From a virus (taxonomy: Duplodnaviria > Caudoviricetes), in IMG/VR virus record IMGVR_UViG_3300021599_001627, positions 1-60,252 of that record: a stretch of DNA of 60,252 nt; one strand, 5' to 3'. Shown here in pieces: positions 1,347-37,420 of the stretch. The notes under the pieces are model-generated. The model was given only the letters and a program-made list of their open reading frames with translations. It was not told where the DNA came from and searched no databases. The translations under genes and the position numbers were made by a program. Every line of letters begins with the position of its first letter. Position 1 is the stretch's first letter.

Positions 1347-4029
1347 AAATGCGCGGCGGCTTCTTCTCATCGACAGCATCACCACGGATCATGTTCCGCA
1401 GCATGTCGAATTGGTCTTCTGGGATCTCGGTGAATTTGCCTTGGTTCTTCAGGGCCCAGAGCTTGTCCCCCTTGAGGCCGGGAATTGCCTTGAACCCGAA
1501 ACCCTCATAGATCGACTTGCGCTTCGCACCCTTGCCGTCGGCCTTATGGGGGACCGCGAAGAGGAAAGCGTCGTCGGGCAGCATGTCCAGCTGCGCCTTG
1601 TACATGGCCTTGGTGGTCCGGAGCAGCTGGCGAGCTTGACCGCTAGGCATACCGCCCTCGGCGTCATAAGTGGTGTTGATTGTGAAGCCCAAGCCGAACT
1701 GAGGGAACTTGCCGATGTTCGCTTTGCGCTCAGCACCGAAGGTCAGCAGGCTGTCTCCAACTGATCCAATCGATAGGTGAGTGCCGTTGGCAGTCACCCA
1801 GGTCGAAAAGTTGTGATCAACGTCGACCGCTTTGATCTGAGCGCCTTGGGCCCGCAAAGCCATGTGCGCTGCGGCCAGCTTGGCATCCCCTACCAACTTG
1901 CGTGCAGGCTCTCGGAACTGTTCGGGCAGTTTGTCTAGCCCGGCTTTCACCTGAGCCGTCGACAGCTTGCGGATTGCCTCCTGACTCAGGCCGGGGACCA
2001 AGGCAGCGCGGTTGCGATAGGCCAGCAGTCCGCCAACGGTCAGACCCGCTCCGGCGGTCAGAGCAACTGCAGCGCCGATAGCCCGTCCTCGTGGGGCTGC
2101 ACCCCTGCTCAGTTGTTCACCGGCACCTCGCCCCTTGCTGCACTCATGCGCCTTCGGGATGTACGAAGCGCCGCAGGGCTTTCCCAGGCGGGGGTTCTCC
2201 TTGAAGTCGGCGCGGGCGGCGAGGTAGGTGGCAGTGCGCACGAGCTCGGGGGCGAAATCGTCTTCGTCACCGCGCCTGGCGATGATCCGGTCGGCCTCGG
2301 CAGCGGCGGCCTCGGGGCTGAGGCCGTTTGTGCCACGCATCAGCATGCTGATCAGCTCGCTGCGTGAACGCAGCCGACGGCGGGCGGGGCGTTCAGCGCC
2401 CGTAGCAGGACGCGCCGGGCGGCTGGCCGCTGCTCCGGAAGGCCGCCGGGCAAGACGTGGAAAGCCGTTGGCGCGCAGGAATTCGACCGCGTCATCGGTA
2501 TTCGAGCCGGTCCAGCCCATGTCCTGGGCTGCGTAGCGGATCGCCCCATCGGAGGTGGCGTTCCAGGTGGAGCGGGTACGACCGCTGTAGTTGCCGGGGA
2601 CCACCTTCTCGTACCAGACCTTTTGCAGGACGAGCTCGGCGTGGTTGGCGCCACGGATCGTGTAGCTGTCCGCCAGGCCGACGTCGCGCTTGACCCGGTT
2701 GGCGGTGCCGACAAGCGCCGTGCGGATCGAAGCGCCGGCTTCACCGCTGGCGATGACGCGGGTGGTCGGAGAGGTGTCCTCTTTGATCGTGCGGGCGAAG
2801 TCGCCAAAGCTCTTGTCGAACCCTTTCTGGGTTTCCTCGAAGATCCCGCTGGCGATTGTGCGCGTGCTGATCTCGTCTTTGCTCGTTTTGCCGACAGAGA
2901 CGATGTCTCGGATGTAGCCGCCAAGCATGTCATTGGCGCCCTGCTGCTGGTCCGGGTTCAGGCCACGCATCCGTGGGGCGGCCGAGGACCGGGCGATCTC
3001 CACGTACCGGTTCACATCGGTGGCATTCTTCGGGTCAAGGCCCCGCTGCAGCATGTCCTGTCGCATGCTGGTGCGCGCCGACGTCAGCGCAGTGCTCAGC
3101 CTGTTCTCGATGTGGAAGCGAGAGCCGGCACCGTCACGATTGGTGATCGTCGAGGGGTCGATGCTGAACTGACGCGCCAGGTGGTGCGCAGTAGCAACTT
3201 CGCTGTACAGGCTCTTGCCGCCTACGTTGGCACCGATTGTTGAACCCATAAGGTCCGATCTGAAATTGGCGTAGTTGCCGCTGCCTTTACGCGCGTACGC
3301 CTCTTTGATTGCGGTGTCCAGGCCGGTGAAGGCACGCCGCTCTCGGGTGCTCACATGTGGGAAATAGCGTTCACCGCCGCCAGCGTTGGCGGGGTCGAAG
3401 GAAAGGTTGCGAGACACAGCGCGACCCAGGCGCTGGGCTTCGAGGCCAGCACGACGGCGCTCCTGTACACGCAGTTGGCCACTGAACGGCACTCGGTCGA
3501 GCCCCCAGCTGACCGCGCTGGTCATGGAGGTCTCGATGTCCCGCCCAATCCCGTTGCGGTACTGCGGGACCAGCAGCTTCATCCCCTCGTGGCCGCGCTG
3601 GAGGGCCCAGATGCCGAAAACAGCTGTCGCAACAGGAAGCAGAACCTTATTGACGTTCTTGCGCAGGGCTTCCTTCTGCTTGATGTTTTGACCGGGTACT
3701 GCCTTGACGATGCCGCGTTCGATAGCAGCTCTGCCGCCTTGGATATCGACAAGACTTCCTTTCTTGAAGCCTGTTACAAGACGGCGGCGGCCTCGGGCGA
3801 TTGAAGCGGCACCGGCCAGTGGGTCACCGGCGACCACCCGCGAGTGCGAGTCAGTGCCTTCGCCTTTGACCCGGCAGTTCCAGTTCGGTGGGATGCAGCG
3901 GTCACCGCAGACACGGTTGGGCGGGTTGCACTTAGGGCCTTTGGCGCTGCGGAAGTCCAGGCGCTCTCGGGCGGCCAGGTACGCCGCGGTGCGGAAGCCG
4001 TCGGGCGTTAGGGGGTGCTGGTTGTCCAT
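1333..4029 (-). CDS. Large (~898 aa) putative virion/head cargo protein with two repeated Cys-motif modules
   Basis: Long ORF between portal and MuF; TGATG stop/start coupling with the portal at 4029; repeated TAxYLAAR..(R)xDF...CG...IP...C motif. Confidence 0.8.
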   Translation of the reverse strand: MDNQHPLTPDGFRTAAYLAARERLDFRSAKGPKCNPPNRVCGDRCIPPNWNCRVKGEGTDSHSRVVAGDPLAGAASIARGRRRLVTGFKKGSLVDIQGGRAAIERGIVKAVPGQNIKQKEALRKNVNKVLLPVATAVFGIWALQRGHEGMKLLVPQYRNGIGRDIETSMTSAVSWGLDRVPFSGQLRVQERRRAGLEAQRLGRAVSRNLSFDPANAGGGERYFPHVSTRERRAFTGLDTAIKEAYARKGSGNYANFRSDLMGSTIGANVGGKSLYSEVATAHHLARQFSIDPSTITNRDGAGSRFHIENRLSTALTSARTSMRQDMLQRGLDPKNATDVNRYVEIARSSAAPRMRGLNPDQQQGANDMLGGYIRDIVSVGKTSKDEISTRTIASGIFEETQKGFDKSFGDFARTIKEDTSPTTRVIASGEAGASIRTALVGTANRVKRDVGLADSYTIRGANHAELVLQKVWYEKVVPGNYSGRTRSTWNATSDGAIRYAAQDMGWTGSNTDDAVEFLRANGFPRLARRPSGAAASRPARPATGAERPARRRLRSRSELISMLMRGTNGLSPEAAAAEADRIIARRGDEDDFAPELVRTATYLAARADFKENPRLGKPCGASYIPKAHECSKGRGAGEQLSRGAAPRGRAIGAAVALTAGAGLTVGGLLAYRNRAALVPGLSQEAIRKLSTAQVKAGLDKLPEQFREPARKLVGDAKLAAAHMALRAQGAQIKAVDVDHNFSTWVTANGTHLSIGSVGDSLLTFGAERKANIGKFPQFGLGFTINTTYDAEGGMPSGQARQLLRTTKAMYKAQLDMLPDDAFLFAVPHKADGKGAKRKSIYEGFGFKAIPGLKGDKLWALKNQGKFTEIPEDQFDMLRNMIRGDAVDEKKPPRIYGPA

Positions 4030-5897
4030 CAGTACACCTCCCATCCGGCGCGGAGGGCCTCAAGTTCGCCCTCGGGGACGGGGGATAGCCCTGCCACATT
4101 CTGCCGAGGGAATAGCGCAGACACGCCTTGCTTGGCGGCGCGCAACGAGGCGAAGCCTGTCACGTAGGGGCCTTCAATCAGGCTGCCGTCCGGTGTGTCG
4201 AAGCGAGCTCGGTACAGCTTGTAGCTGCGGGCGCGGTTGGGGCCGAAGACCATCAGCGGGGCCGCTGCGCTGGAGTCGGTGCGCTGGCCGTCGGGCCCGA
4301 CAAGGTGACCAGCGCGGATCGCACCGGCGGTGTGGGTGACGCGGATCCGCAGGCCGTGGGCCTCGTAGTTGTCGAAGATGTCGCCGCGCTTCGTGGCAGG
4401 AGCAGGCTCAGGTGGGGCTTCGTTCTCGGGGGGCTGCGCTTCCTGCGCCGGCGGGTTCTGCAGCGCCTGGGCCTGAGCCTCGTAGCCCATCATCTGGGAC
4501 TGGAATGACGCGTCGGCCTGTGTCACGAGCTGTTCCGAGACGACGTCGTTCAGCGCGGTCTCGATGCTGTACTCCGTTCCGGCAAAACGGGATTCACGTA
4601 CTTCAATAGCGTTGAGTACTCCGAGGTTCACGTATTGGGCGTCGACCTGGGCCATCTGTAGACGCAGGGCGGCTTTTTCCTCGTTGGTCTCGGTGAATAC
4701 CGAGGGGAAGTGTGTCGCCCAGGACTGCGGTACGCGGCCTCGGGTGGGACCTTCGCGGGAGGCGAGGATGTACGAGAACACCTCGGTAACTGGGGTGCGG
4801 CAGTACACCTCCTGCCATTGCTCGACCAGCGAGGCCCAGACGCGCTCTTCGAAGCGGCCTTCCTTGCCGAGACCGCCGGGGGAGTCGCCCATCAGGATCG
4901 AGGCGGGCCAGCCGGTGGCAGCCTGGAGATCCTTGACGAAGGGGTCGGTCGCGCTCGCGATGTTGGCGAGGGCGCGGTTGAGGAACTGCAGGTCTTCCTC
5001 GACGTCGACCACCATGCCGCCGTAGACCGAGCGGCTGAGGTTGTTGGCCTCCAGGCGCTTGCGCAGGTCGCTCTCGTTGCCGGATGCGATGCGCTGGAAC
5101 AGGCCGGGGATTTTGTGGACGAACAGGTCGGCGTCGGAGGTCATCGACTCCAGGCCCGACATGGCCGACTCGTAGCGCTTGTACGCCGCCCAGATCAGTT
5201 GGAGAACACTGTGGCCCCAGCCGGTGTTGCGGGCACGGAGCTGCCAGGGCAAGTACAGCCCGTCGAAGCGGGCGACGCGGGAGCTGTGGATGCGGACGTT
5301 GACGTAGGGGCCGTCCTGCTCCGGGGTGATGCGCTGACTCGTGGTGATCCGGTAATGACTGGGTTTGGACCAGTCGGTGATTGTGAAGTCCTCGGGAATC
5401 AGCTCGTGGCGGGAGAGTGCGACGTAGCCACGGATTGCGCGGATGCGGCTGGCGTCGACGGGTTCGTCCTCGGGGAGGCCGTCGTCAATGAGCAGCACGA
5501 GGCCAGCGCCGCCGTACAAGCGCTGCAGCTTTATCACCTCAGACAAGGCAGCGTGGAACTGCGTGGCCTTCAGGTACTCCTCGAACGAGGTGGTGACGTC
5601 CTGGGCGCCGGCGTCATCACCCCCGATGGAGATTGTGGCCCGGTGGCGCAGGATGTCGTCGGCGATGGCGTCGACATAGCGACGGGGAACGCCGTGGCTG
5701 TAGAGGGCTTCGAGCTCGCCTTGCGTTAGGAGGTAATTGGAGCCGACTGAGGTAGCAGCTGTTTTGTCTTTTCCGGCAATACCCATGCCGGTGAGGACGT
5801 TGACAAGTGCACCGTCGTTTCTATTACTACTTATATCGTTCCGGAATTTATCGGAAACAAGCGGCTCCACGGCAGGAGTGGGCGGGGGGTCATACAC
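4029..5897 (-). CDS. Portal protein (DUF1073/HI1409 family) with C-terminal extension
   Basis: RLYGGAGLVL, RIHSSRVARFDG, GWGHSVL and P.SILMGDSPGG motifs; located downstream of TerL. Confidence 0.9.
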   Translation of the reverse strand: MYDPPPTPAVEPLVSDKFRNDISSNRNDGALVNVLTGMGIAGKDKTAATSVGSNYLLTQGELEALYSHGVPRRYVDAIADDILRHRATISIGGDDAGAQDVTTSFEEYLKATQFHAALSEVIKLQRLYGGAGLVLLIDDGLPEDEPVDASRIRAIRGYVALSRHELIPEDFTITDWSKPSHYRITTSQRITPEQDGPYVNVRIHSSRVARFDGLYLPWQLRARNTGWGHSVLQLIWAAYKRYESAMSGLESMTSDADLFVHKIPGLFQRIASGNESDLRKRLEANNLSRSVYGGMVVDVEEDLQFLNRALANIASATDPFVKDLQAATGWPASILMGDSPGGLGKEGRFEERVWASLVEQWQEVYCRTPVTEVFSYILASREGPTRGRVPQSWATHFPSVFTETNEEKAALRLQMAQVDAQYVNLGVLNAIEVRESRFAGTEYSIETALNDVVSEQLVTQADASFQSQMMGYEAQAQALQNPPAQEAQPPENEAPPEPAPATKRGDIFDNYEAHGLRIRVTHTAGAIRAGHLVGPDGQRTDSSAAAPLMVFGPNRARSYKLYRARFDTPDGSLIEGPYVTGFASLRAAKQGVSALFPRQNVAGLSPVPEGELEALRAGWEVY

Positions 5898-5951
5898 AGA
5901 GTCTACGAGTTGAGGCTGAATTCTTGTAAGTCACACAGATCGGGAAAAATC

Positions 5952-6035
5952 GAGAGAAACTTAGCTTCAAGGCACAAAAACTTAGAGTCCGGGCACAAGA
6001 ACTCAACTTCGACCTACAAAAACTTAGAGTCGGTT
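5952..6035. repeat. Four imperfect 21-bp tandem repeats (ABAB)
   Basis: gagagaaacttagcttcaagg / cacaaaaacttagagtccggg / cacaagaactcaacttcgacc / tacaaaaacttagagtcggtt. Confidence 0.8.
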
Positions 6036-6082
6036 CTGGCCGTGCTCGGGAGTCCATACGCTGGGTAAGCGGCATTCGGCGC

Positions 6083-6400
6083 ATGGTGGACCATCACATC
6101 GATGGATCCGTCCTCCTTTCGAAGCGTCTTGCCAAGCTGCGGTTCAGGCAGGGAATCCTCGATTCCTGGAAGTGCCTTTGCGCTTACTGCGGTAGGCCGG
6201 CGCGCACGCTCGATCATGTCCGCCCTCGGTGCAGAGGTGGGCACACCGTCGCGCAGAACCTGATCGCGGCTTGCGCAGACTGCAATCGAGCCAAGGGCTC
6301 GGAGTTGGACTGGGTTAGGTGGTTTCGGGCTCAGACGTTCTGGGATCCGGAACGGGAGGCGGACATATGGCTGTGGCTACATCCAGTCCGAACGGCGTAA
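6083..6400 (+). CDS. HNH endonuclease
   Basis: [17 protein letters not shown]...[14 protein letters not shown]. Confidence 0.9.
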
Positions 6401-6626
6401 GTTTCCAGGCGCGGGATCTGGTGCAGTAGTTGGCTTGGCCAGCTAGGCGAAGACGGCGCAGAACACGGTCCACCAGGCGCGCCAGGGGTTCATACTCGAC
6501 GCCCTCGGGGGCGAGGCTGGCGATCGAGCGGGCGAGATGGGCGGTCTGGCCTTCACCGCGTGCGAGGTGCCAGCGCACTTGGTCTGCTGTCCAGTCTTCG
6601 AGCTCGGGGGAGAAGGTGTGGGGCAT
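6315..6626 (-). CDS. Hypothetical protein (possible winged helix)
   Basis: 103-aa ORF starting directly after the tRNA; its 3' end overlaps the HNH gene convergently. Confidence 0.55.
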
Positions 6627-6698
6627 GGGGGCCGCGAGGATCGAACTCGCCTTAGACCGATTATGAGTCGGCTGCTCTCACCAGATAGCTAGACCCCC
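6626..6698 (-). tRNA. tRNA with CAT anticodon (Ile2/lysidine type or elongator Met); CCA not encoded
   Basis: GGGGGTC TA GCTA TCTGGTGA GAGC A GCCGA CTCATAA TCGGT CTAAG GCGAG TTCGATC CTCGC GGCCCCC A folds as a cloverleaf. The paired 1:72 argues against initiator. Confidence 0.93.
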
Positions 6699-6731: not shown

Positions 6732-8213
6732 TTAAATGTGGGCGAAGAACCCCGCAGTATTAGGGGACTCGGGGACGGCGCTGCAGGCGAAAGCCAACGC
6801 CATCACAGTATCGTCATGGGCCCCTGAGGCTGCTTCGCGGGATCCAGATTCCTTTTGCTGGAAAGCACGTAGCTCGTTGGGGATGGCGCCGTTGGGGAAG
6901 ATCAGCTCGTCTCGCTCCATGTAGTACAAGATGCGATCCGTTGCTACTACTTTACTGGGACGGCTAGTGCTGAACGTCTCGATAGCATAGTTAGGCAGGA
7001 TGTTGGCGAGCGCCTCTGCGATTACGGCTCCCATCGCCTGCTTCTCCACGATTACCCGCTCCGGTAGGTAATCCTCGATGAGGGACTTCACATGGCGCAA
7101 GCTGTAATCAGTGCTCTTGCCGTTCTCGTGGTACATGGCTACGACCTCGTAGGGCGTAGCAGTGATGTCCAGTACCAGAGCGGTGAAGTAATCGTTGCCC
7201 CCGGCGTTCGGGTCAATGCCGATCACGTAAGTGCGGCCGATCGAGCCGCACTCGCGCCAGTGGCCGCGGGTGGCACGGCGGATCAGGTCTGTTGGGTAGA
7301 TCTGGGTATCGGTCGCGCCGAAGGCCAGCTCGTATTCGCTGTCCCATGCGGCTTGGGTCATGCGGCGGGACTCGCGGGTCCGCTGCGCCCACTCCGGGTC
7401 AGCCCCGTAGATCGGATGCTGGCTGTAGTGGATCGCGACGCGGTTCCACGAGTCCTGCACTTCGGCCAGGGCCGTGTTCAGCTTGACGATCTCGCGGCGG
7501 CGGACGTGGTCGTACCAGTCGACCGGCGTGCCCTGGTGCCACAGCTGGCCGAACCAGTCGAGCTCGGTGTCGGGGGTCGAGGTGACGATCACCTTGGCCG
7601 CCTCGCCCACCATGGACAAGGTCGGCATGGCGCCCCGGTAGATCTCGGCGGCGCCGTCAAGGAAGGCGCCTTCGTCCATGAACAGAACGGAGCAGCTCGG
7701 GATGCCGCGGGCGGCGCGGGGTGAGGCGGGCAGGAAGTACAGCGTGCCGCGCCCCTCGATGGCGATCTGCGTGTTGCTGTCCGTCAGGTAACGGATCGAT
7801 TCGCCCTCGATGGAGTTGGCCATGGCGCGGACTCGGCGGCCGAGCTCGGAGGCGTCCTGTTGTGTCTTGGAGAAGATCACCGCGGCGAAACCGCGCTCGG
7901 TGAGGGCGCGGCACAGCAGGTAGGAGCAGACCGTCTCCGAGGCGCCCATCTGGCGCGACTTGTTGATGATCGTGTTCGGGTGCGCGTTGATGCTCTCGAC
8001 CAGCGCGATCTGGTACGCGTATGGGTCGAACGGCGCCACCGTGCCGGCCGTGCGGATCCAGGTGCGTCGTGCGAACGACGGCCAGTCGTCCACGCCCGGC
8101 AGCTTCGTTGGGGGTACGGCCGGGTCGAAGTTCGCGGCGCGTGCGGCGCGGCGGGCCAGTTCGAGGCGCAGGCGGTCGGCGCGGCGTTGCAGCTGCGAGA
8201 GGGAGGCGGTCAT
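6732..8213 (-). CDS. terL: Terminase large subunit
   Basis: Walker A-like KSRQMGASE, Walker B VLFMDE, VTSTP, nuclease motifs IGIDP and HDDTVMALA. Confidence 0.95.
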   Translation of the reverse strand: MTASLSQLQRRADRLRLELARRAARAANFDPAVPPTKLPGVDDWPSFARRTWIRTAGTVAPFDPYAYQIALVESINAHPNTIINKSRQMGASETVCSYLLCRALTERGFAAVIFSKTQQDASELGRRVRAMANSIEGESIRYLTDSNTQIAIEGRGTLYFLPASPRAARGIPSCSVLFMDEGAFLDGAAEIYRGAMPTLSMVGEAAKVIVTSTPDTELDWFGQLWHQGTPVDWYDHVRRREIVKLNTALAEVQDSWNRVAIHYSQHPIYGADPEWAQRTRESRRMTQAAWDSEYELAFGATDTQIYPTDLIRRATRGHWRECGSIGRTYVIGIDPNAGGNDYFTALVLDITATPYEVVAMYHENGKSTDYSLRHVKSLIEDYLPERVIVEKQAMGAVIAEALANILPNYAIETFSTSRPSKVVATDRILYYMERDELIFPNGAIPNELRAFQQKESGSREAASGAHDDTVMALAFACSAVPESPNTAGFFAHI

Positions 8214-8225
8214 GGGCGCGGGGCG

Positions 8226-8690
8226 CTACGCGTCCTCGGGGTCGGCAGAGGGCAGGAGCTCGGGGCCGTCGTCCTCGGGGGTGGCGTCGGGGATCTGCAT
8301 CAGGCCGTAGATCTGCGACTCCAGGTCCGAGACGGTGCGCTCCAGCAGCTTGCGCTCCTGGTAGGCGGCGGCGCCGTTCAACAGGGCGCGGGAGGCGGCG
8401 ATGCGGTCGCTGGCGCGGGCGTTCTGGTCGCTCATGATCTCGGTGAGCGTCGCGATGGCGTCAGGCATCAACGCCAGGCCCTTGGACTCGGAGACGTCGA
8501 TCAGCTCCTGCTGCAGGGCGTAGACGGCGCGCTGGACCGCGGGGCGTTTGCGCCAGTTGTAGAGGGCGCGCTCGGAGACGCCGAGGGCGCGGGCAACTTC
8601 GCGGCAGGTCTTACCGCGGGCGAGCAGTTCGGCGGCCATGCGCTCGTTCTCGCGGAGGCCGTCAATGAGGGACGCATTTCGTGCCGGCAT
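8226..8690 (-). CDS. Putative terminase small subunit (N-terminal HTH)
   Basis: HTH TCREVARALGVSERALYNW; directly upstream of terL. Confidence 0.7.
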   Translation of the reverse strand: MPARNASLIDGLRENERMAAELLARGKTCREVARALGVSERALYNWRKRPAVQRAVYALQQELIDVSESKGLALMPDAIATLTEIMSDQNARASDRIAASRALLNGAAAYQERKLLERTVSDLESQIYGLMQIPDATPEDDGPELLPSADPEDA

Positions 8691-15324: not shown

Positions 15325-15389
15325 TTGGGCCGGGCGTGGGAAACTGGGAGGGCATGGTCGGTTGACTCACAGCGCCGGTCGTGTGGATG

Positions 15390-15422
15390 AGCGCGCCGGG
15401 CCTGAGAAACCCGGCGCTTTTT
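15390..15422 (+). terminator. GC hairpin plus T-tract (plus-strand/antisense terminator)
   Basis: gcgccggg-cctgagaaa-cccggcgc-ttttt. Confidence 0.55.
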
Positions 15423-15427
15423 GTTGC

Positions 15428-15724
15428 TCACGCCTTGCGGATCCGGTACGTCGCGACCTGGGCGCCCGCGGCATCCATCTCCTGTACTGACAACAGGCCA
15501 CGGTTGAAGCGGTCTCGGTCGTCACGGTCGAGCCGGGGCAGGGTCACCTCAGACAAGCAGTCGGCATAAGCCGCCAACCAGTACGGCAGGTGGCCGTAGA
15601 CGTGGCGGTGCAGGATGTCGTCGGGACGGACGTATTCGAGACATTCGCCGTTGATACCTTTCTCTTTAAGCCACGCCAGGATTGATTCGTTCGTGAAGGT
15701 GATGATCGGAGCGGTCTCGGGCAT
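15428..15724 (-). CDS. Csx16 (VVA1548)-like protein; candidate cyclic-oligoadenylate ring nuclease or binder
   Basis: WLKEKGI...PDDI...VYGHLPYWLAA...RGLLSVQEMDAAGAQVATYRI follows the Csx16 pattern (V.G.LP..LAA; LS.EEM...GA.L..Y.V), recalled from memory. Confidence 0.65.
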   Translation of the reverse strand: MPETAPIITFTNESILAWLKEKGINGECLEYVRPDDILHRHVYGHLPYWLAAYADCLSEVTLPRLDRDDRDRFNRGLLSVQEMDAAGAQVATYRIRKA

Positions 15725-15820: not shown

Positions 15821-16906
15821 TCACACCAGTGCCAGGCAGGCTTCGCGGGCACGGTCGATCCGCTTGGCGCTGCTGCCACCCCAGAGGGCTTCGAGGCGGG
15901 CGCGGGCACGGTCGGTCTCGTCCTTGGCGCGGCCTGCGTCGTGTGTCTCGAACTGGGTGATGGCGTTGTACAGGCCGTACAGCGTGCCGGCGCAACCGGG
16001 CAGGTCTCGGATGCCCAGGCCGGTGTCACCGGCGTAGTGGCTGCGGATGACGTCGATCTCGGGGAGGTCGGCGATTGTGCGCTGGCGTGGCTTGCCGGTG
16101 TCCTTGTCCTTAATTGGAGAAGCAAGCTTGTCGGCGAAGGTGCTCTCCAGAACGCGCCGGGCGAGCTCGGTGGTGAGCTGGACGTTGGTCAGGGAGCGCA
16201 GCTCGTCGATCGACTGGCGGAAGGAGCGGCGCTCCAGGTCGATCAGGTGCGGCAGGTTCTCGGCGAACTGGGTGACTGATGCCGTGTGCTTCATTCGCAG
16301 ACCGGAGCCGTCACGGCTAGCCAACGTGGCGGCCTTGCCGGTCAGGTAGCTCAGCTGGTTGGCGCACCGCAGGCGGACGTCGCTGAAGAACACGCCGAAG
16401 GAGCTGGAGCCGTCGAAGCTGTTGAAGGCGTGGATGTAGCGGCGGACCCGGTCACCTGGGAGTACTTCGTCCTCGGCGCGGATTGAGGCTGTGGCGAAGA
16501 TCTTGCGGCCGTTGCGGATCGAGAGGACGTTTTCGATCTCGATGTCTTCGCGGAGGTAGTCGAGCAGGTTCACCAGGGCCGTGTTCTGGACCGGCGTGTA
16601 GCCCGAGCCGTGGATGCCCAGGAGCTGGTTGGTGTCGCTGCGAACAATCGAGCAGTGCTCGGGGGATTCGATCGGGCCGTCGGGGCCCATGAAGAAGGCG
16701 GGGCGCTTGTCGGCGGTCCAGTCCAGGCCGGCGATGGCGAATGCCTCACAGGCGGAGGCGTTCTCGGGCGTCATGGTGCCGACGCGGCCGATCAGTGGGT
16801 TCACGGCGTAGCCGCGGTCGCGATACCGGCCGTAAACCATCGGGCCGGAGCTGTCGGCGGAGAACGCGGTGCTGACGCGGTTGGGGCTGCTGAGAGTCAT
16901 TTGCAT
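15821..16906 (-). CDS. DUF932 (TIGR03299-like phage/plasmid) protein
   Basis: AGLDW, RSDT..LLG....YTPVQN, NSFDGSSS, VR..CANQL, KHT, GTLYGLYNAIT. Confidence 0.88.
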   Translation of the reverse strand: MQMTLSSPNRVSTAFSADSSGPMVYGRYRDRGYAVNPLIGRVGTMTPENASACEAFAIAGLDWTADKRPAFFMGPDGPIESPEHCSIVRSDTNQLLGIHGSGYTPVQNTALVNLLDYLREDIEIENVLSIRNGRKIFATASIRAEDEVLPGDRVRRYIHAFNSFDGSSSFGVFFSDVRLRCANQLSYLTGKAATLASRDGSGLRMKHTASVTQFAENLPHLIDLERRSFRQSIDELRSLTNVQLTTELARRVLESTFADKLASPIKDKDTGKPRQRTIADLPEIDVIRSHYAGDTGLGIRDLPGCAGTLYGLYNAITQFETHDAGRAKDETDRARARLEALWGGSSAKRIDRAREACLALV

Positions 16907-22485: not shown

Positions 22486-22661
22486 CCCTCGCGCACGTCT
22501 TCCGCGCTCGGGGCTTGGTACAGCTCTTCGAGTTGGCGGATGAAGTCGGGTTCGGGGGTGACTTGTTCGACCATGATGCGCTCGATGCGTGGGCTAGAAG
22601 CCAGGAGCCGCAGCATCAGTAGTTCGTACCAGCGCAGGGGTACCAGGGGCTCTTTACTCAT
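22482..22661 (-). CDS. Hypothetical protein (59 aa)
   Basis: Translated by hand: [29 protein letters not shown]...[16 protein letters not shown]; ATGA overlap with the sigma gene. Confidence 0.6.
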
Positions 22662-23527
22662 GGTGTGTGACCTTGGCTGCGGAGAATGTTGCGCAGGCGG
22701 TTCAATGCCGTCTTCTGGACCTGGCCGGCGCGGGAGCGGCTGAAGCCCAGTTCGGTAGCGATGTCGCGCAAGGAGCGGTTCTCGAAGAACACGCCGTACA
22801 GGATCTGGGCTTCGACCTCGGGGAGGCGGTTCAGCGCCAGAGTCATCACCTCGCGGTTGTCCTGTAGGCGCAGGGATTCATCGGGGGAGCTGGTGGCGTT
22901 CGCGCTGTCGTAGACGATCAGGTCCATCAGGGCGTTGCCGTCGTCTGTGCACAGCGTGTCGAGCGAGCGGCACGTCGTTGTGGACTGCAGGTCGAGCATG
23001 GCCACGATGCGCTCGGGCGTGGTTTCGCAGTGCGCGGCGATCTCGTCGAAGCTGGGGGCCCGGCCGTTCGTGGCGGTGTACTCGGTAGTGAAGCGCTGCG
23101 CCCGGCCCAGTACTTCGTGGGTGTTGATCGGGAGGCGGATCGGGCGGGCCATGCTGTGGATGGCTCGGGTGATCGCCTGGCGGATCCACCAGTACGCGTA
23201 GGTGGATACCGCGTAGCCGCGCGTCGGGTCGAAGAGTTCGAGGCCGCGGATCAGGCCGAGGTTGCCTTCCTGGATCAGGTCGAGCAGATCCAGGCCCCGG
23301 TTCTGATAGCGCTTGGCGATGGACACGACCAAGCGCAGGTTGGTCTGGACCATGATCGTCATGGCGCGCTCGCCGGCGCGGCGAATGCGCGGCGGGGCGC
23401 TGTCGCGGCCGTCGGCGTGGTGCACCCAGGCGAAGATGCGTTGGCAGTGACGTAGCTGCGCCTCCTTGCTGAGGACGGGGAGCCGACCTACATCGGTCAG
23501 ATAGCTCTGGAGTTCTGTATTGGACAT
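22658..23527 (-). CDS. RNA polymerase sigma-70 factor (RpoD/group 2-like)
   Basis: [26 protein letters not shown]...[36 protein letters not shown], region 4 HTH. Confidence 0.95.
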
Positions 23528-23537
23528 CAGTGCATTG

Positions 23538-23879
23538 TCAACCAGAACTGGATGGGGGAGGGTAAATGAGTGTTGAAGGCTCTGGGATATGGCGCGTAGC
23601 TGGGATGTCCTGCTGAGCGGGGAGCGCGTCGCCCGAGGGCGGATGGACCTCGGGGATGGGAACAGTGTCCGGGGCGTCGTACGGCAGCCAGCCGTTCTCG
23701 GGGTTCAAGTCTCGTGTGAGGTCTTCGCCGAGGTTCCACTGGGCGCGGATGATGTCTTCGAAGCACCGTTCGAGGAGCGGCGCATAGCCTGAGTACGTGA
23801 AGGCGCCGTCAGGGCCATCGTGTAGCTCCCAGCGGTAGTAGCCGTCCTCGGTGGAGCGGATGGTGATGAGGAGGGTCAA
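23538..23879 (-). CDS. Hypothetical protein
   Basis: [11 protein letters not shown]...YSG.A..L..CFE.I. Confidence 0.6.
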
Positions 23880-25546
23880 GGTGCAAGGCGGGCTTTGTGG
23901 AGACGAGTTGAGGCGTACCAGGCCGCGATGGCTGGTGACCAGGCTTCAAAGTGAGGCCAGATCAGATCGCACATCTGCTGGATTTCCTGCTGGGCGTCGC
24001 GCTTGGAACGCAGGTCCAGAAAATGCATCAGCGCTCGCAGCGAGAAGCTCACTACGAAGTGCTGGCGGATGGCGTAGGGGATGAGGTCGCGGGCATGCTC
24101 TTCTGACATGCCGCGGTCCAGGGCGAGCTTGAAGCGAGCGGCCGAGTCGATGCAGATGATGCGGTCGATCGTCCGCTGGTCCTGCGTGTACTCGTAGCTC
24201 TTACCGTTCCGGTCTCGGTAGGTGCCGACAGGGCGCAGGTAGAAGACTTCTTCCGCGTTTCGGGTGCCGTTGACCACGTCGATGATGCGCTGGCTCGTAT
24301 AGCGGCCAGAGTTGTGTACAACGATGCCATCAGCCACAAAGTTGTGATGCGGGGCCTCCATGGCGATGTCGTATGTCTGGACTGTCCCGGCCGGGCGGAT
24401 TGACAAAATGCGAACAGCATGAGCTGCCAGCCGATGACGGAGCTTGTGACAACGGGGGCACAAGACAACTATGTTGCTCGCGTTCGTTGCCAGATCAGGT
24501 CTTTCCAGTACCGGATAGACGTGGTGACAGTGCAATCTTGAATGAGGTTGTGCGCAATCTTGACAAAGGTGCCCAGCCTTTGCAAGAAGCGTTGGCCGAG
24601 CGTACTTCAACCAGTTGTAGGCGCGCTTCTCTATCGGAAGGTCATCCTTCCACGATGGATGTGACGGGCCTTGGTTGAGCTTCCCCTTTTGGAGGCTGGC
24701 AGCGTGGCGTCGGCGTCGGTCGCGCTCGGTTTCGCTGATGTCCAGTTTTTTACCTTCGTGGGAATAGGGGGGTCGTTTACGCCATGTTAGCCCGTAGTGA
24801 TAACTCCACTTTTTAACGGCTTCTGTAGAGACACCAGCAATCAATGCAACCTCCTTAGGTATTAGCCCCTTGGCGTAATGCCGCTCTAGCCACTCTTTGT
24901 TTTGATAAGTGGTGGGTGCTTTTGCGGTTGCCCTGCCATTCACCATCATAGTTTCACCTTCTTTCAGCTCACCAGCAGTCTTCCAGCCGCCTGGGGTCAA
25001 GACACGGTGCTCTGTTGTGCACCGCAAAACCTTGCCGTCAGCCAGGCTTAGTTCAAGAACTGGCTTGAGGCCACCATTGAAGACGGCAAATATGCGGTTG
25101 ACTACAAACTCGTTTCTTTCTTCGTCTAATGAGCGAAGCCTGAGGGCGCGGACCTTGCCTGGGTCCTCGTTCCAGAGAGCGGCAACCTTTTCAAGCGTTA
25201 CGGTTCCTGTCTTGATGCCATTTTTGTCAACAACGGTTATCTCGGAAGCCTGATCAAGACACTGCACGTCGAAGCTCACGCCGACCCGGTGGGTGCGGGC
25301 CTGCTGCATCACCGAGTGGGGGAACCAGCCCACGTTGAAGCTGATCTGCGGGTGCTCCAGGGGGCCGTAGTGGCCACGCTCGCCGGCGAGGAGGTGCTTG
25401 ACGACGATGGCGCCGCACTCGGCATCGGACGGGGGGTCCTCGTTGAAGACGAAGTTTTCGCTGTAGTCCTGGTGCATTGCCCACCAGATCAGCGTCTGGG
25501 GTGTTTCAGTCCGGGCGAGGACTTCGACCTTGAAATACGGGTCCAT
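23876..25546 (-). CDS. thyX: Flavin-dependent thymidylate synthase ThyX containing an intein
   Basis: GHYGPLEH, QARTHRVGVSFDVQ|SGRY, EEHARDLIP, FLDLRSKRDAQ.EI; start MDPYF at 25546. Confidence 0.93.
   Translation of the reverse strand: MDPYFKVEVLARTETPQTLIWWAMHQDYSENFVFNEDPPSDAECGAIVVKHLLAGERGHYGPLEHPQISFNVGWFPHSVMQQARTHRVGVSFDVQCLDQASEITVVDKNGIKTGTVTLEKVAALWNEDPGKVRALRLRSLDEERNEFVVNRIFAVFNGGLKPVLELSLADGKVLRCTTEHRVLTPGGWKTAGELKEGETMMVNGRATAKAPTTYQNKEWLERHYAKGLIPKEVALIAGVSTEAVKKWSYHYGLTWRKRPPYSHEGKKLDISETERDRRRRHAASLQKGKLNQGPSHPSWKDDLPIEKRAYNWLKYARPTLLAKAGHLCQDCAQPHSRLHCHHVYPVLERPDLATNASNIVVLCPRCHKLRHRLAAHAVRILSIRPAGTVQTYDIAMEAPHHNFVADGIVVHNSGRYTSQRIIDVVNGTRNAEEVFYLRPVGTYRDRNGKSYEYTQDQRTIDRIICIDSAARFKLALDRGMSEEHARDLIPYAIRQHFVVSFSLRALMHFLDLRSKRDAQQEIQQMCDLIWPHFEAWSPAIAAWYASTRLHKARLAP
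24311..25261 (-). mobile_element. Intein (317 aa) with HNH-type homing endonuclease
   Basis: Starts CLDQASEI; block B CTTEHRVLTPGGW; ends TYDIAM..PHHNFVADGIVVHN/S; internal CQDC..LHCHH..NIVVLCPRCH. Confidence 0.93.
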
Positions 25547-25782
25547 CAGCCTTTGCGGTACACGATTGGACGGGATGAGCACTCGATCTGTGCCACACGC
25601 CAGGTACGGCCCGCGGGATCGAGCAGCGTGTAATGCGGGAAGCCCAGCCAGAGCTCACCACTGACCACCTTGAAGGTCTCGTCGAAGCCACGACCTCGGA
25701 CGTAGACGCTGTTACCTAGGCGGAAGCGCCAGGGGTGGGTGAGGCGCTCTTCGAACTCGGGAACGTGAGGGTGCGGTGTCAT
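25546..25782 (-). CDS. Hypothetical protein
   Basis: ORF track; coupled overlaps. Confidence 0.65.
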   Translation of the reverse strand: MTPHPHVPEFEERLTHPWRFRLGNSVYVRGRGFDETFKVVSGELWLGFPHYTLLDPAGRTWRVAQIECSSRPIVYRKG

Positions 25783-29895: not shown

Positions 29896-32829
29896 ATGCT
29901 TGCTTCACAGTCCGCAAGCCTTCCCCCTGACGACCTCAGCGGAAAGGCGATCGATCTGCTGCGTCGTGGCGTCTTCCCCCGCTGGTGGCGCTTTGTGCCG
30001 GTGCACGGCAAGGACACCTACGTCGAGGAATGGCAGAACCGGCCGCTCACCGCCGAGATGTGCATCGAGGCGTACAAGGCCAAGCACTGCTACCGCGGTA
30101 TCGGCGTCGTCACTGGCGAGCACTCGCAGGGCCTGATCGCCCTCGACGTGGATGGTCCGACGGCCGATGAGCGTTACAAGGCCATCGCTGGTGACGAGTA
30201 CGAGCCCTACGGCGAGGAACGCACCATGGCCTGGACCTCGGGGAGGCCGGGGCGCAGGCAGCTCATCTACCAAGTGCCGCGGCAGCTGATTCCGGAGCTG
30301 GACAGCGTCACCAGGCTCAAGCTGACGCTTGATGGCACCTGGCGCCGCGGCTCCAAGGCCAAGGAGCAAGCCGCGGGCCTGGAGCAGAAGGCTCTGGTCG
30401 AGGGCGACCCCGAGTACGAGGAGGTCGTGCTCCGCTTCAACAAGAGTCAGAGCGTGTTGCCGGGCTCGCCACATCCGGATACCGGTGGGCGCTACCACTT
30501 CCTCAATTACAACCAGGGCAGGGTCGAGCCGGCACCGGGCTGGGTGCTCGATGCCCTGCGGCCGTTCCGCAAGCCGGTCCAGTGGCTGCCGGATTCGGTG
30601 CAGCAGGAGCTGGATGCCGAGCTCGGGGGGCAGACCGTGTTGCCGCCCAGGCAGATCCGCGGCTGGTTCTTCAAGGAGGAGGTGCAGGCCAAGCTGCGGC
30701 CTCGGCTGGCGGATCTCGTCTTCCGTCACGAGGCGTTTGAGCGGTACGGCTGGAAGGAGCGCGGCGGTGACAACCCGCAGATGATGTCCGGCTGCCCGTG
30801 GCACGGCGGCAAGAGCGGCACCAGCTTCCAGTTCTCCATGCAGAGCGGCTGCTGGGACTGCAAGGCGTGCGAGGTCGGTGGTGACCTGCTCGACTTCATC
30901 CACAAGATCAAGGTCGACAACCTCTATGCCGGCAAGCCCACCGGGGCAGATCTGGAGAAGTACGTCGCCGACCTCGCGGGGGAGATTGGCTTCAACTACC
31001 CCGAGGACGCCAGGGCCCAGGTCACCAAGGAGGTGCCGCGGCTCGTCATGAACGCCAGGGACTTCCACGAGGCCCTGATCAAGATCCACGACGAGGAGAT
31101 GAACCCCGCGCTGCGGGTGGCCCGGATGGCCGAGCTCGCGGCTGAGACGGGGCGGCGCCTCACCGGGTCGCAGTGCCTCGCGGCGATGGAGGAGTACCGC
31201 TACTACGAGGACTCACGCCGGCAGAACGAGAAGAAGCACTGGTGGCAGGACGTGGAGCGCATGCAGTTCCTCGTGCCCAACCTGCTGATGAAGCCCACCC
31301 AGGTGATGCTTCACGCTGCTGGCGGTCTCGGCAAGACGTCGGCCTGCATGGGCCTGGCCACCGCCGTGGGGCGCGGCACTCCGATGCGGATCCGCGGCAT
31401 TGAGCTGCCGGTCAAGCAGGGCCCGGTGCTCTGGATCCAGAACGACCAGAACCCGGCCAAGCTTTTGCAGGACTGCGAGGACAACGGCATCGATCCGGCC
31501 AGCGATAGCTGGTTCATCGTCAAGCGTGGCTTCCAGATCAACCACACCCACGAGTTCGCCGAGTGGATCCGGCAGTACAAGCCCGCTCTCGTGGTGGTGG
31601 ACTCGATCGGCTCCTGCAGCACCAAGATGCAGTGCGAGGAGAAGGACAAGGGTTTCGCGAGCCCCTTTTATTACTACGCAGAGAAGAACGGGGATCCGGG
31701 CTCTGATGGGTTTCCTCCGACCTCGATCATCTGGATCCACCATGACAACGCCAATGGGGAGGCCAGGGGGACGCGTTACCTCGTGGCGGCGGTCGATGAG
31801 CAGTGGCACCTCAGGACGCTCTCGGAGGATGAGCGGGAGGCGCTGAGGGAGCGGCGGCGTAGTCCAAGTAACTGCCGCATGATCCAGATCAAGAAGTCAC
31901 GCCTGGGGCGGCAGGGTGACCTGCTGGTGGTCGAGCGGGACCACGACTTTGCGTACTCGGTGTGGGACTACACCCCGACGGAGCGGCGCGAGGACCAGGG
32001 GCAGGGTGATCCGGAGCCGAACACCATGGCGCTGCGCATCGTCAAGGACCGGGTGCTGAAGGCTCGGGGTGAGGAGGGCGACGGGAACGACCGGATCACA
32101 GCCAAGGAGGTGTGGGAGCGCCTGGTCGGCGAGATGGGTGGCCAAGGCAGGCAGGCTCCGTCGAGCAGGACCGTGAAGCGGTGGCTGGATCGGTGGGTGA
32201 CGAACGGGGTGCTGAAGGAGGGGAAAAAGCGGATCGTGGCTGGCTCTAAGGCGCCGGTGTCCTCCTACACACTCCCTACCACCACCTCCTCGCGTGCGTT
32301 GCCTGCTGGGGAGTGTCCTTTGATCATCGTTCCTCCAAAACCCTTGCAGGAACAGGAAATAACGATGGACACAGCTCCATCCCCCGAGTACGATGTCCAT
32401 CGTTCTGAAGACGTTCAACCTGTTCCCGAGAACGATGGACACCAACCAGATGCGGAAAAGGATGTCCATCGTTTTTCTTCAGTCGTAGCAGTCGATCTCA
32501 GGGAACGAGGAACAACGGACACTTCCACGCGGGGTAAGAAGGAGCCCGATGGACTGCGAGGACCAGATGCAACAGCGATGGCTCCCGAGCTCGGAGAAGG
32601 CGTGCAAGCGCCTGGCGACGTGGGAGCGGAAGTTCCGGGAGGCCAAGACTCCGGGCGGCCGGCACTGGGCGATGACTCACATCTGGCGGTGCTCGACGGA
32701 CAACCATCCGATCGTCCAGCTGTGGTTGAACCGCGATCCTCGGTTCAACGACATGACGTGGACCTTCCCGTCCTGACGGAGTGGCAGGAGACGCCAGAGG
32801 ACTGGGAGCGTTTTGGTGACCAGTGGTAA
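29896..32829 (+). CDS. Primase-polymerase / Zn-finger / AAA helicase replication protein
   Basis: Prim-Pol IGVVTG..S.GLIALDVDG and SVLPGSPHPDTG; CHC2 finger CPWH...WDCKAC..GGD; Walker A AAGGLGKT; Walker B VVVDS; IHHDN. Confidence 0.92.
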   Translation: MLASQSASLPPDDLSGKAIDLLRRGVFPRWWRFVPVHGKDTYVEEWQNRPLTAEMCIEAYKAKHCYRGIGVVTGEHSQGLIALDVDGPTADERYKAIAGDEYEPYGEERTMAWTSGRPGRRQLIYQVPRQLIPELDSVTRLKLTLDGTWRRGSKAKEQAAGLEQKALVEGDPEYEEVVLRFNKSQSVLPGSPHPDTGGRYHFLNYNQGRVEPAPGWVLDALRPFRKPVQWLPDSVQQELDAELGGQTVLPPRQIRGWFFKEEVQAKLRPRLADLVFRHEAFERYGWKERGGDNPQMMSGCPWHGGKSGTSFQFSMQSGCWDCKACEVGGDLLDFIHKIKVDNLYAGKPTGADLEKYVADLAGEIGFNYPEDARAQVTKEVPRLVMNARDFHEALIKIHDEEMNPALRVARMAELAAETGRRLTGSQCLAAMEEYRYYEDSRRQNEKKHWWQDVERMQFLVPNLLMKPTQVMLHAAGGLGKTSACMGLATAVGRGTPMRIRGIELPVKQGPVLWIQNDQNPAKLLQDCEDNGIDPASDSWFIVKRGFQINHTHEFAEWIRQYKPALVVVDSIGSCSTKMQCEEKDKGFASPFYYYAEKNGDPGSDGFPPTSIIWIHHDNANGEARGTRYLVAAVDEQWHLRTLSEDEREALRERRRSPSNCRMIQIKKSRLGRQGDLLVVERDHDFAYSVWDYTPTERREDQGQGDPEPNTMALRIVKDRVLKARGEEGDGNDRITAKEVWERLVGEMGGQGRQAPSSRTVKRWLDRWVTNGVLKEGKKRIVAGSKAPVSSYTLPTTTSSRALPAGECPLIIVPPKPLQEQEITMDTAPSPEYDVHRSEDVQPVPENDGHQPDAEKDVHRFSSVVAVDLRERGTTDTSTRGKKEPDGLRGPDATAMAPELGEGVQAPGDVGAEVPGGQDSGRPALGDDSHLAVLDGQPSDRPAVVEPRSSVQRHDVDLPVLTEWQETPEDWERFGDQW
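32361..32522. repeat. Alternating inverted repeats, putative replication origin inside the primase 3' end
   Basis: AACGATGGACAC at 32361 and 32431; GATGTCCATCGTT at 32392 and 32461; partial AACGGACAC at 32514. Confidence 0.7.
32549..32776 (+). CDS. Possible overprinted gene within the primase tail
   Basis: 75-aa ORF in another frame, preceded by AAGGAG; protein-like composition. Confidence 0.45.
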   Translation: MDCEDQMQQRWLPSSEKACKRLATWERKFREAKTPGGRHWAMTHIWRCSTDNHPIVQLWLNRDPRFNDMTWTFPS

Positions 32830-36289: not shown

Positions 36290-37420
36290 TCAGAGGGTTA
36301 GGCCGTGCATGGCTTTCTGAATCCGGTCGGCTTCGATCCACCGCTGGTAAGTCGACTGATGCACGGACAGGCTGTGCCCCATCAGTCGGGCGGCCAGGTC
36401 CGCGGCCACACCCTTGCTCATCAGGCGCAACGCGTAGGCGTGCCGCAGGTTGTACGGCTTGATCGTCACCTGATCTCTGGCGAGGGCGTCGGAGAACGCC
36501 TTGCTGAGGCCCTGGGCGGACTGACTCGGCCGACACAAATTGTGAAGATCAAACTGGCTTACCCACGCTCTCGGGCAGGGAGTGACCCGCCGGCTGCCGG
36601 TCTTGGTGGCGTCGGCCACCTCGATCCAGTCGTCCTCCAGCCAGATCAGCTCGGCGCATTCGTGGGGGCGGAGGCCGTAGGCCGCGCACATGGCAAAGGT
36701 CCAGCGCCAGTGCGGCAGAGTGACTTGCTTGAGCGCGGCCTCGATTGCCTCGTCCGACGGGATGTCGCGCTCGGTGAGCTTGTCGACGCCGTAGCCGCGG
36801 CAGGCGGCGAGCAGTGGCTCGTGATCGAGGCCGAGGGAGCGGGCCACCTGGGCCAGCAGGTTGCCCTGGTCGCGCCGGGCGGCAGTGCCCTCGGGGAGCT
36901 TTCGGATGCAGCGGAGCAGGACCCCCTCAGTGATGACCCCCGAGGGCGGCAGTTTGCGTAGGGCCGGCGCCCACTTCTTCGACCAGGCGGCGGTGCCGCG
37001 CTCGGGGGCTTTGGCGTACTTGCTGGCGTGGAGGCCCTGGGCGGCAGCGTGGAAGTCCGACACGGTGATGACGGACGCGTCAGGAGCTTCCCACGCAGTC
37101 CACGTAAAGGTGCTGGTGCGTAACTGGTGGCCCAGCTCGACGGCTTTGCGTTCGGCTTCGGGGAGGGCGGAGAACTCGGCGGGCAGTCCGAGGGCAATGC
37201 GCTGCTGGCGTCGCTGCGACGGATCGTCACGCGTTGGCAGGGTTGCCCTGAGGTGCAGGGAGGCCCCGCGCAGCTCGACAACGCACTTCTGGTGCCCGGC
37301 CTTCAGGCGGGCGTTCAGCTCTTGTAGGGCAGCGTCGAGGGCCAAGGTCTGGACTAAAACCTGGACTACTTTCCCCGTCAGCTTAGGTCTGTTTTGGTCG
37401 AGCCTGGCTGAATTAAGCAA
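36290..37420 (-). CDS. int: Tyrosine integrase (true start probably near 37345)
   Basis: YGLRPHE (R), TKTG.R (K), LRHAYALR (HxxR), LMGHS, H..TY (Y). Confidence 0.93.
   Translation of the reverse strand: MLNSARLDQNRPKLTGKVVQVLVQTLALDAALQELNARLKAGHQKCVVELRGASLHLRATLPTRDDPSQRRQQRIALGLPAEFSALPEAERKAVELGHQLRTSTFTWTAWEAPDASVITVSDFHAAAQGLHASKYAKAPERGTAAWSKKWAPALRKLPPSGVITEGVLLRCIRKLPEGTAARRDQGNLLAQVARSLGLDHEPLLAACRGYGVDKLTERDIPSDEAIEAALKQVTLPHWRWTFAMCAAYGLRPHECAELIWLEDDWIEVADATKTGSRRVTPCPRAWVSQFDLHNLCRPSQSAQGLSKAFSDALARDQVTIKPYNLRHAYALRLMSKGVAADLAARLMGHSLSVHQSTYQRWIEADRIQKAMHGLTL

Follow-up and report, generated by a model that had tools for sequence, protein, structure and literature searches.

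A phage-only clade of Csx16-derived proteins without the Arg-His motif, and its possible role in neutralising cA4 signalling

Results

A Csx16-like gene in a phage genome

The window, by which we mean the whole stretch of DNA analysed here, is a linear viral contig of 60,252 bases from IMG/VR, 86% complete as estimated by CheckV. At 15428..15724 on its minus strand, the ORF listing gives an ATG-started reading frame for a protein of 98 residues, which the PF09652 match, hhalign, dN/dS values and AlphaFold2 (AF2) model described below identify as the coding sequence of a Csx16-derived protein. Residues 10-14 read FTNES (F10-T-N-E-S14), residues 42-52 read VYGHLPYWLAA (V42, G44, L46, P47, L50, A51 and A52) and residues 78-95, which hold L78 and Y93, read LSVQEMDAAGAQVATYRI; the motifs quoted in the original prediction of a Csx16-like protein (V.G.LP..LAA, LS.QEM.AAGA....YRI and FTNES) are all found in the translation as quoted. 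By eye, no clear Shine-Dalgarno sequence was seen in the 36 bases before the ATG, and no promoters were called around the gene. A GC-rich hairpin starts at the stop codon (15388..15430, minus strand), with a minimum free energy of -24.6 kcal/mol (z -2.87), and none of 200 shuffles folds as well. It has no U-tract on the strand of the gene, the T-run being on the opposite strand, and it was left uncalled by the terminator scan; the sole terminator-like site, at another place, is no stronger than shuffled sequence would give. The upstream neighbour, at 15821..16906 on the minus strand, encodes a DUF932 protein of 361 aa (PF06067, E 5.4e-28; phrog_1221).

The gene had been described as phage-encoded and as having no cas context, and both descriptions hold for this contig. 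PHROGs recognises the portal (4029-5897), the large and small terminase (6732-8213 and 8226-8690), a primase (29896-32829), a DNA polymerase (33200-35149), an integrase (36290-37420), an endolysin (37979-39124) and, between 45 and 60 kb, tail, tape-measure and host-specificity proteins. Among the ORFs of the window that were scanned, 51 by PHROGs, 34 by Pfam and 41 by PADLOC, no Cas or defence family was found (for PADLOC, 0 of 41 at E <= 1e-5), and the window holds no spaced-repeat (CRISPR) array.

Elsewhere on the contig, the ThyX (Thy1) gene at 23876-25582 (minus strand) seems to be split by an intein that contains an HNH endonuclease; in a single ORF of 568 aa, Pfam finds Thy1 in two stretches together with Intein_splicing and HNH. 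The phage also has a gene for a complete sigma-70 family factor (regions 2, 3 and 4) at 22658-23527 (minus strand) and, just downstream of the large terminase gene, a tRNA-Met (CAT) of its own (6626-6698, minus strand); a 21-nt tandem repeat of 3.4 copies stands beside the portal gene (5957-6027). Two large minus-strand ORFs, 40103-42550 and 51571-53343, are much poorer in GC than other parts of the contig: GC3 values of 0.39 and 0.43 compare with about 0.6-0.9 in most other ORFs, and the regional GC is 0.46-0.48. Both ORFs look like recent acquisitions and are possibly host-recognition modules; the 815-aa low-GC ORF has no PHROG, Pfam or PADLOC family.

The protein is a divergent homologue of Csx16

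PF09652 (Cas_VVA1548) matches the 98-aa protein over profile positions 7-90 of 91, with 24.8 bits (E 2.5e-5) against a gathering score of 25. It is the only family reported for the protein at E <= 10, DUF1874 (AcrIII-1/Crn2) giving no match. Two PADLOC models of Csx16 also match (E 8.6e-5 and 0.0092). TIGR02620 (NCBIfam, cut-off 46.35) gave no match to the protein at E <= 0.01 and, in the 10 clade members scanned, two weak matches of 16.7 and 26.8 bits; the curated cut-offs of both families are therefore not reached by the window copy. At E <= 10 no PHROGs family matches the protein, and the known sponge families (Acb2, Tad1, Tad2 and Csx15-type) have no Pfam or PHROG match to it. Sequence-profile matches in the PDB, to DARPins and a designed TIM barrel, were rejected as spurious, being confined to short low-complexity stretches.

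The relatives of the protein are more informative than the single sequence. BLASTP returned 28 close homologues of 96-102 aa that are 56-93% identical; aligned with the query, they form the clade discussed here, with 26 invariant columns and the other rows 55-93% identical to the window copy. PF09652 matches 29 of 29 clade sequences at E <= 0.01, with 6.2e-10 as the lowest E-value. When 1.84 billion representatives were searched exhaustively with phmmer, 158 proteins reached E <= 1e-3, of which 62 were scanned; PF09652 was found in 59, in 58 of them above its cut-off, and the three misses are one fragment and two long repetitive proteins. Alignment of the clade with 20 canonical Csx16 sequences by hhalign gave a probability of 99.9% (E 5.3e-31, 95 columns, 37% identity). 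The nearest clusters in the ESM Atlas are all Cas_VVA1548/Csx16, and their taxon-labelled members are 83-100% viral. Since the relatives match PF09652 and hhalign gives 99.9%, the marginal score of the single sequence is settled, and we regard it as secure, from comparison of the sequences, that the protein is a true but divergent Csx16 homologue sharing common descent over the full domain. The assignment to Csx16 made in the original prediction, for which a Pfam or profile search had been named as a check, is thus upheld, albeit with a PF09652 match just under the cut-off.

The clade occurs on phage DNA only

In IMG/VR, 20 viral contigs encode clade members. In 16 of these 20 viral loci, and in all three contigs of metagenome-assembled genomes (MAGs) that carry the clade, the DUF932 gene is the immediate upstream neighbour of the Csx16-like gene; of the four viral loci that differ, three have their match at the contig edge, and the fourth, L017, has its clade copy in a different phage backbone (Gp157, Mu-F and portal_3), which points to transfer of the Csx16-like gene between phages. 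The three MAG contigs, all short, are the only ones found in the genome collection and carry the same phage block. The clade therefore occurs on phage DNA only, with no cas genes nearby among the ORFs scanned. In one relative, the IMG/VR contig L016 (~4861-6273), the DUF932 and Csx16-like genes stand in one open frame of 430 aa. Given that L015 has the identical Csx16-like protein in an ORF of its own, a frameshift or an error of assembly seems likelier than a true fusion; near the C-terminus of DUF932, the L016 translation departs from the DUF932 protein of the window.

The MAG bins are Rubrivivax, Chitinophagales and Cephaloticoccus, and because the same phage block appears in three different and unrelated phyla, binning was set aside as uninformative about the host. 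One clade homologue is labelled Betaproteobacteria, which is no more than a hint to the host. The terminase is at most 34% identical to that of any cultured phage, the DUF932 protein has no cultured-phage match, and a search of 50,697 cultured-phage records gave nothing by megablast with 12 kb or by tblastn with the 98-aa protein.

This context bears on one alternative, namely that the protein answers not to cA4 and type III CRISPR but to another nucleotide signal (cA3, cA6, or another cyclic nucleotide such as that of CBASS), or serves the phage internally in connection with DUF932. The position of the gene immediately downstream of DUF932 in most viral loci would fit such a role, and, as the MAG bins and terminase give no host, they give no repertoire of defences that the phage faces. 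However, the link to DUF932 is gone in L017 and in the viral relatives that keep Arg-His, and it therefore looks like lineage synteny; we treat DUF932 as a conserved syntenic partner in the phage lineage, that is, as context only. Furthermore, the sole activity known for the family, according to the available text of PMC12409355, is specific for cA4. We consider this alternative unlikely; one further point for it, the rebuilt ligand-facing loop and its accompanying insertion, is taken up below.

The Arg-His motif is lost and the rest of the domain is kept

To define what distinguishes the clade, the Csx16 domains of 141 distant representatives were aligned with the 29 clade sequences. Where the family has I-V-T-R-H at positions 8-12, the clade has I-T-F-x-N. 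Arg11 and His12 are each 93% conserved in the 141 domains; in the clade, Asn occupies position 12 in 29 of 29 rows and position 11 varies (T, S, N, A, V, R, K or Q). In the window copy the corresponding codons, T11-N12, lie at 15689..15694 (minus strand), in the loop after strand 1 and at the start of helix 1, and the hhalign alignment places T11-N12 opposite the R-H of the family. A second change affects position 39 (codon 15608..15610, minus strand), which is Gly in 79% of the 141 domains and His in 29 of 29 clade rows. Asn12 and His39 are both kept in 45 of 45 distinct clade sequences, a set made up of the clade set, the copies on viral and MAG contigs and the divergent member L029. The replacement of the RH dipeptide noted in the original prediction is thus borne out by both column statistics and alignment.

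By contrast with this loop, the clade keeps 21 of 26 positions whose conservation in the 141 domains is 80% or higher, including G44, L46, P47, R70, M83, G87, A88 and Y93; E82 (74%) and D84 (76%), just under that bar, are kept too. The motif G44-H45-L46-P47 of the window copy (codons 15584..15595, minus strand) is shared with Csx16 at G, L and P (G 99%, L 89%, P 100%), whereas His45 is peculiar to the subclade of the window copy. The five positions that are not kept are 9, 11, 12, 28 and 75, the last of which is ambiguous in alignment. The clade also has a four-residue insertion, D71-R-F-N74 in the window copy (codons 15503..15514, minus strand), at positions that are gaps in 82-85% of the 141 domains. 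A rebuilt ligand-facing loop together with this insertion could change ligand specificity, as the other-signal alternative would have it, but the insertion is found as well in an RH-bearing subfamily (including P0031, P0034, P0037, P0038, P0041 and P0049) and is therefore untied to the change of motif.

The clade comprises two subclades. In one, the motif is V-T/S-[R/K]-N and position 45 is hydrophobic; the other, to which the window copy belongs, reads T-F-x-N with His45, the T/S10 that precedes position 11 being changed to Phe as well. Arg or Lys at position 11 (codon 15692-15694) and His at position 45 (codon 15590-15592) are nearly exclusive: 24 sequences have His45 only, 18 have R/K11 only, one has both and two have neither. 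From the sequences, this exclusivity may reflect compensation, although the pattern tracks the two subclades, amounts to one or two evolutionary events and is confounded by phylogeny.

RH-bearing relatives in other viruses

A profile of RH-bearing sequences found further viral contigs, in which RH is kept in 13 of 15 (L025-L028 and L031-L039); no cas genes were found beside these RH-bearing copies in the 98 neighbouring ORFs scanned, out of 114 ORFs of at least 120 aa. Two cultured viruses carry RH-bearing copies, namely Methanobacterium virus Drs3 (ORF3, annotated Cas_VVA1548) and Bacillus phage Shbh1 (gp42). The available text of Hoikkala et al. (PMC12409355) reports Csx16 in 2 of 28,114 phage genomes, and AcrIII-1 in 36; Drs3 and Shbh1 may or may not be those two. 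The novelty that the original prediction implied for a phage-encoded Csx16 was thus overstated, given this published count and the 13 viral contigs and two cultured viruses found here. RH-bearing Csx16 is thus frequent on phage DNA and, with RH kept in both cultured-virus copies and in 13 of these 15 contigs, phage life as such does not select against it.

Many RH-bearing Csx16 domains are extended at the N- or C-terminus by 50-250 aa that match no Pfam family (P0032, P0033, P0038, P0041, P0049 and P0056 among them). In P0163 the Csx16 domain is fused to a metallo-beta-lactamase-fold domain, and P0058 has two Csx16 stretches.

The clade arose once and is under purifying selection

FastTree, applied to 170 domains, places the 30 clade tips in a single monophyletic branch (support 0.935) nested in a 55-tip group that consists mostly of insertion-bearing RH sequences (support 0.905). 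Because of this nesting, the His-to-Asn and Gly-to-His changes can be taken to have arisen once, from an RH-bearing ancestor. Pairwise dN/dS (Nei-Gojobori) was calculated for 21 distinct coding sequences; of 210 pairs, 199 were usable, and in all 199 the ratio is below 1 (median 0.29, highest value 0.89). In the pairs that include the window copy it ranges from 0.12 to 0.53. The ORF is intact in 21 of 21 related loci. The clade is under purifying selection.

These data speak to the suggestion that a captured Csx16 gene survives here as a remnant, decaying or without function, or that the ORF is no real gene. The loss of the hallmark RH, a Pfam score just under the cut-off and the lack of a clear Shine-Dalgarno sequence before the ATG would be expected of such a remnant. 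A decaying gene would hardly show 26 invariant columns in 29 sequences, dN/dS below 1 in every usable pair and intact ORFs at all related loci, and the confident AF2 fold and presence of the gene in a second phage backbone (L017) weigh against it too; we consider this explanation very improbable.

A confident fold and a predicted homodimer

AF2, run with an alignment of 73 rows, modelled the protein with a pLDDT of 91 and a pTM of 0.79. DSSP assigns to the model three strands of at least three residues and two short bridges, and the strands alternate with helices. Foldseek against the PDB and BFVD found nothing at E <= 0.001, and the sponge proteins Acb2, Tad1 and Tad2 are absent from all structure-search lists. 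In structure comparison, the model scored 4.7 against AFV3-109, a DUF1874 protein of the AcrIII-1 family (2j6c_A; rmsd 2.9, 73 aligned), 3.6 against Csx1-Crn2 with cA4 (8y7g_B), 3.6 against the Cad1 CARF domain (9c68_A) and 3.2 against Can1 (6sce_A).

A predicted dimer structure had been named as a further check, and a homodimer is indeed predicted, with a score of 0.65 against 0.00 for the best control, at least 95% agreement of contacts across runs and a partner pLDDT of 92. The score mark is reached by 20 of 30 solved homo-pairs and by 1 of 23 solved single chains, counts that hold only roughly here as the run used its own alignment and two AMP. The predicted interface comprises residues 45, 48-49, 52, 56-57, 59 and 61 and the C-terminal strand 91-98 (codons 15431..15454, minus strand), which is predicted to pair across the homodimer.

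In the AF2 model His39 precedes the strand 41-43. By the usual topology of Rossmann folds, His39 should then lie on the face opposite the loop of residue 12. We considered whether the catalytic histidine had migrated, that is, whether His12 had been lost and His39 gained in the same site; this was not adopted, as the order of the elements puts His39 on the other face.

Discussion

Ring nucleases are a known viral answer to type III CRISPR signalling. The messenger concerned here, cA4, is a second messenger made by Cas10 of type III CRISPR systems, and AcrIII-1/Crn2 (DUF1874) is a viral cA4 ring nuclease. Csx16 was shown to be a ring nuclease only recently and has been seen in just two cultured viruses. 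According to the available text of Hoikkala et al. (PMC12409355), Csx16, which is associated with type III CRISPR, is a cA4-specific ring nuclease that fully degrades cA4 and does not degrade cA6; as far as the accessible part of a review goes (PMC8284326), that activity had been predicted owing to its conserved His, Arg and Asp/Glu.

We propose that the protein of the window, a descendant of the Csx16 family of ring nucleases, serves the phage in counter-defence. It would be a small Rossmann-like (CARF-like) domain that pairs into a homodimer, as Csx16, and that binds cA4, so that cA4-dependent effectors stay inactive during infection. The cA4 would be held tightly and cleaved slowly or not at all, the protein being a sponge-like or single-turnover inhibitor; slow or absent cleavage is expected because the whole T-R-H loop has been rebuilt to F-x-N and Asn12 is invariant. 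Judged from sequence relationships, the protein probably neutralises cOA (cA4) signalling in one way or another. The narrower proposal, that it is an anti-type III CRISPR protein in which binding dominates and cA4 is cut slowly or not at all, we put forward only tentatively, while preferring it to the reading of a fast enzyme whose active site has been rebuilt. The idea in the original prediction that the protein binds cOA rather than cleaving it is, as an inference, a reasonable one.

By analogy, the binding reading may be argued from a scaffold that is kept while R-H is specifically lost, from occurrence in phages only and from the precedent of Csx15. Several considerations run against it. 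The Asn variant may still cut, since cleavage may arise easily in proteins that bind cOA; as stated in the accessible part of the report on Crn4, cOA cleavage arises easily in domains that bind cOA in the right geometry (10.1101/2025.07.17.665281). His39, His41 and His45 could supply catalysis. Sponging could be made fruitless by the cOA output of type III systems: the available portion of the Csx15 report suggests that, since these systems make so much cOA, sponging may not pay and that viruses use enzymes (10.64898/2026.01.21.700848). In addition, the PF09652 cut-off is missed and TIGR02620 gives no match, and, as the MAG bins and the terminase give no host, a type III target that signals through cA4 is a supposition. 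In the texts available we found no test of the catalytic role of R-H in Csx16; in that on Crn4, the conserved His of that protein is essential (10.1101/2025.07.17.665281).

The main alternative within cA4 signalling is that the protein is a multiple-turnover ring nuclease, a Csx16-type anti-CRISPR that cuts cA4 with a rebuilt active site in which, for example, Asn12 and Ser14 position the ribose 2'-OH and His39, His41 or His45 is the general acid. The family is enzymatic, as far as the available text describes it (PMC12409355), and the scaffold with R70, E82 and D84 is kept. Since Asn12 and His39 are invariant in 45 of 45 sequences, both must be functionally constrained; the near-exclusivity of R/K11 and His45 hints at compensation, and residue 45, which follows the conserved G44, lies at the predicted dimer interface. 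The view expressed in the available parts of the Crn4 and Csx15 reports, that activity evolves easily and that viruses favour enzymes over sponges, would also lead one to expect an enzyme. However, Asn is unable to act as a general acid or base, His39, if the domain follows the usual Rossmann topology, would face away from the residue-12 loop, and the pattern at positions 11 and 45 represents only one or two evolutionary events. Both cultured-virus copies and 13 of the 15 further viral copies, moreover, keep RH. On balance we doubt that the protein is a fast enzyme of this kind, and it is the binding-dominant reading that we carry forward.

In its boldest form, the proposal would make the clade the first naturally occurring viral sponge for the type III messenger, a phage lineage having converted a ring nuclease into a cA4 trap that does not cleave by dismantling its T-R-H loop; we have little expectation that so much will prove correct. 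In such a trap, with His39 on the opposite face, cA4 might be sandwiched between dimers stacked head to tail, in the manner of Csx15 and Crn3.

Whichever reading is correct, the clade is a conserved phage-only branch in which residues thought to be catalytic have been swapped and the rest of the domain has been kept. It is therefore a natural experiment on the role of the Arg-His pair in Csx16, and equally on whether phages soak up cA4 or destroy it; to the question of whether cA4 is soaked up, the current answer of the field is 'probably not'. If the sponge reading were true, sequestration would be workable against type III CRISPR, contrary to the current expectation that only enzymes are equal to the quantities of cOA produced. 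As clade members fall just under the Pfam and NCBIfam cut-offs, their genes carry the label hypothetical and escape HMM-based surveys for ring nucleases of viruses.

Among known systems, canonical Csx16 is the closest comparison. It is modelled, in the available text of PMC12409355, as a dimer with a five-stranded sheet flanked by helices, and the clade resembles it in size, in the alternation of strands and helices, in the predicted homodimer and in 21 of 26 conserved positions; the window copy and Csx16 share the same weak structural link to AFV3-109. In contrast, the clade has x-N in place of R-H, an invariant His in place of Gly39 and the insertion at 71-74, and the window copy is phage-borne without cas genes and lies below both family cut-offs. 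Given that it reaches neither curated cut-off, that it has no RH motif and that it has no association with CRISPR, we file the protein as a member of a Csx16-derived phage clade and not as a Csx16 ring nuclease. As phage Csx16 has already been published, at least in the text available (PMC12409355), it is the RH-less clade alone that is new; a search of titles and the beginnings of abstracts found no paper devoted to phage Csx16 or to RH-less Csx16.

The RH-bearing viral copies of Csx16, those of Drs3, Shbh1 and the 13 contigs, are like the clade in being phage-borne Csx16 domains away from cas genes, as stand-alone or N-terminally extended domains. They keep T/S-R-H and Gly39, whereas the clade of the window has neither, and the insertion-carrying RH subfamily is, in the tree, its nearest relative. 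Csx15 belongs to another family and offers a functional model, by analogy, for a ring-nuclease-like protein that mainly sequesters cA4. As described in the accessible text, Csx15 is cellular and absent from phage genomes, its members sequester cA4 with little cleavage, and it works by forming head-to-tail filaments (10.64898/2026.01.21.700848).
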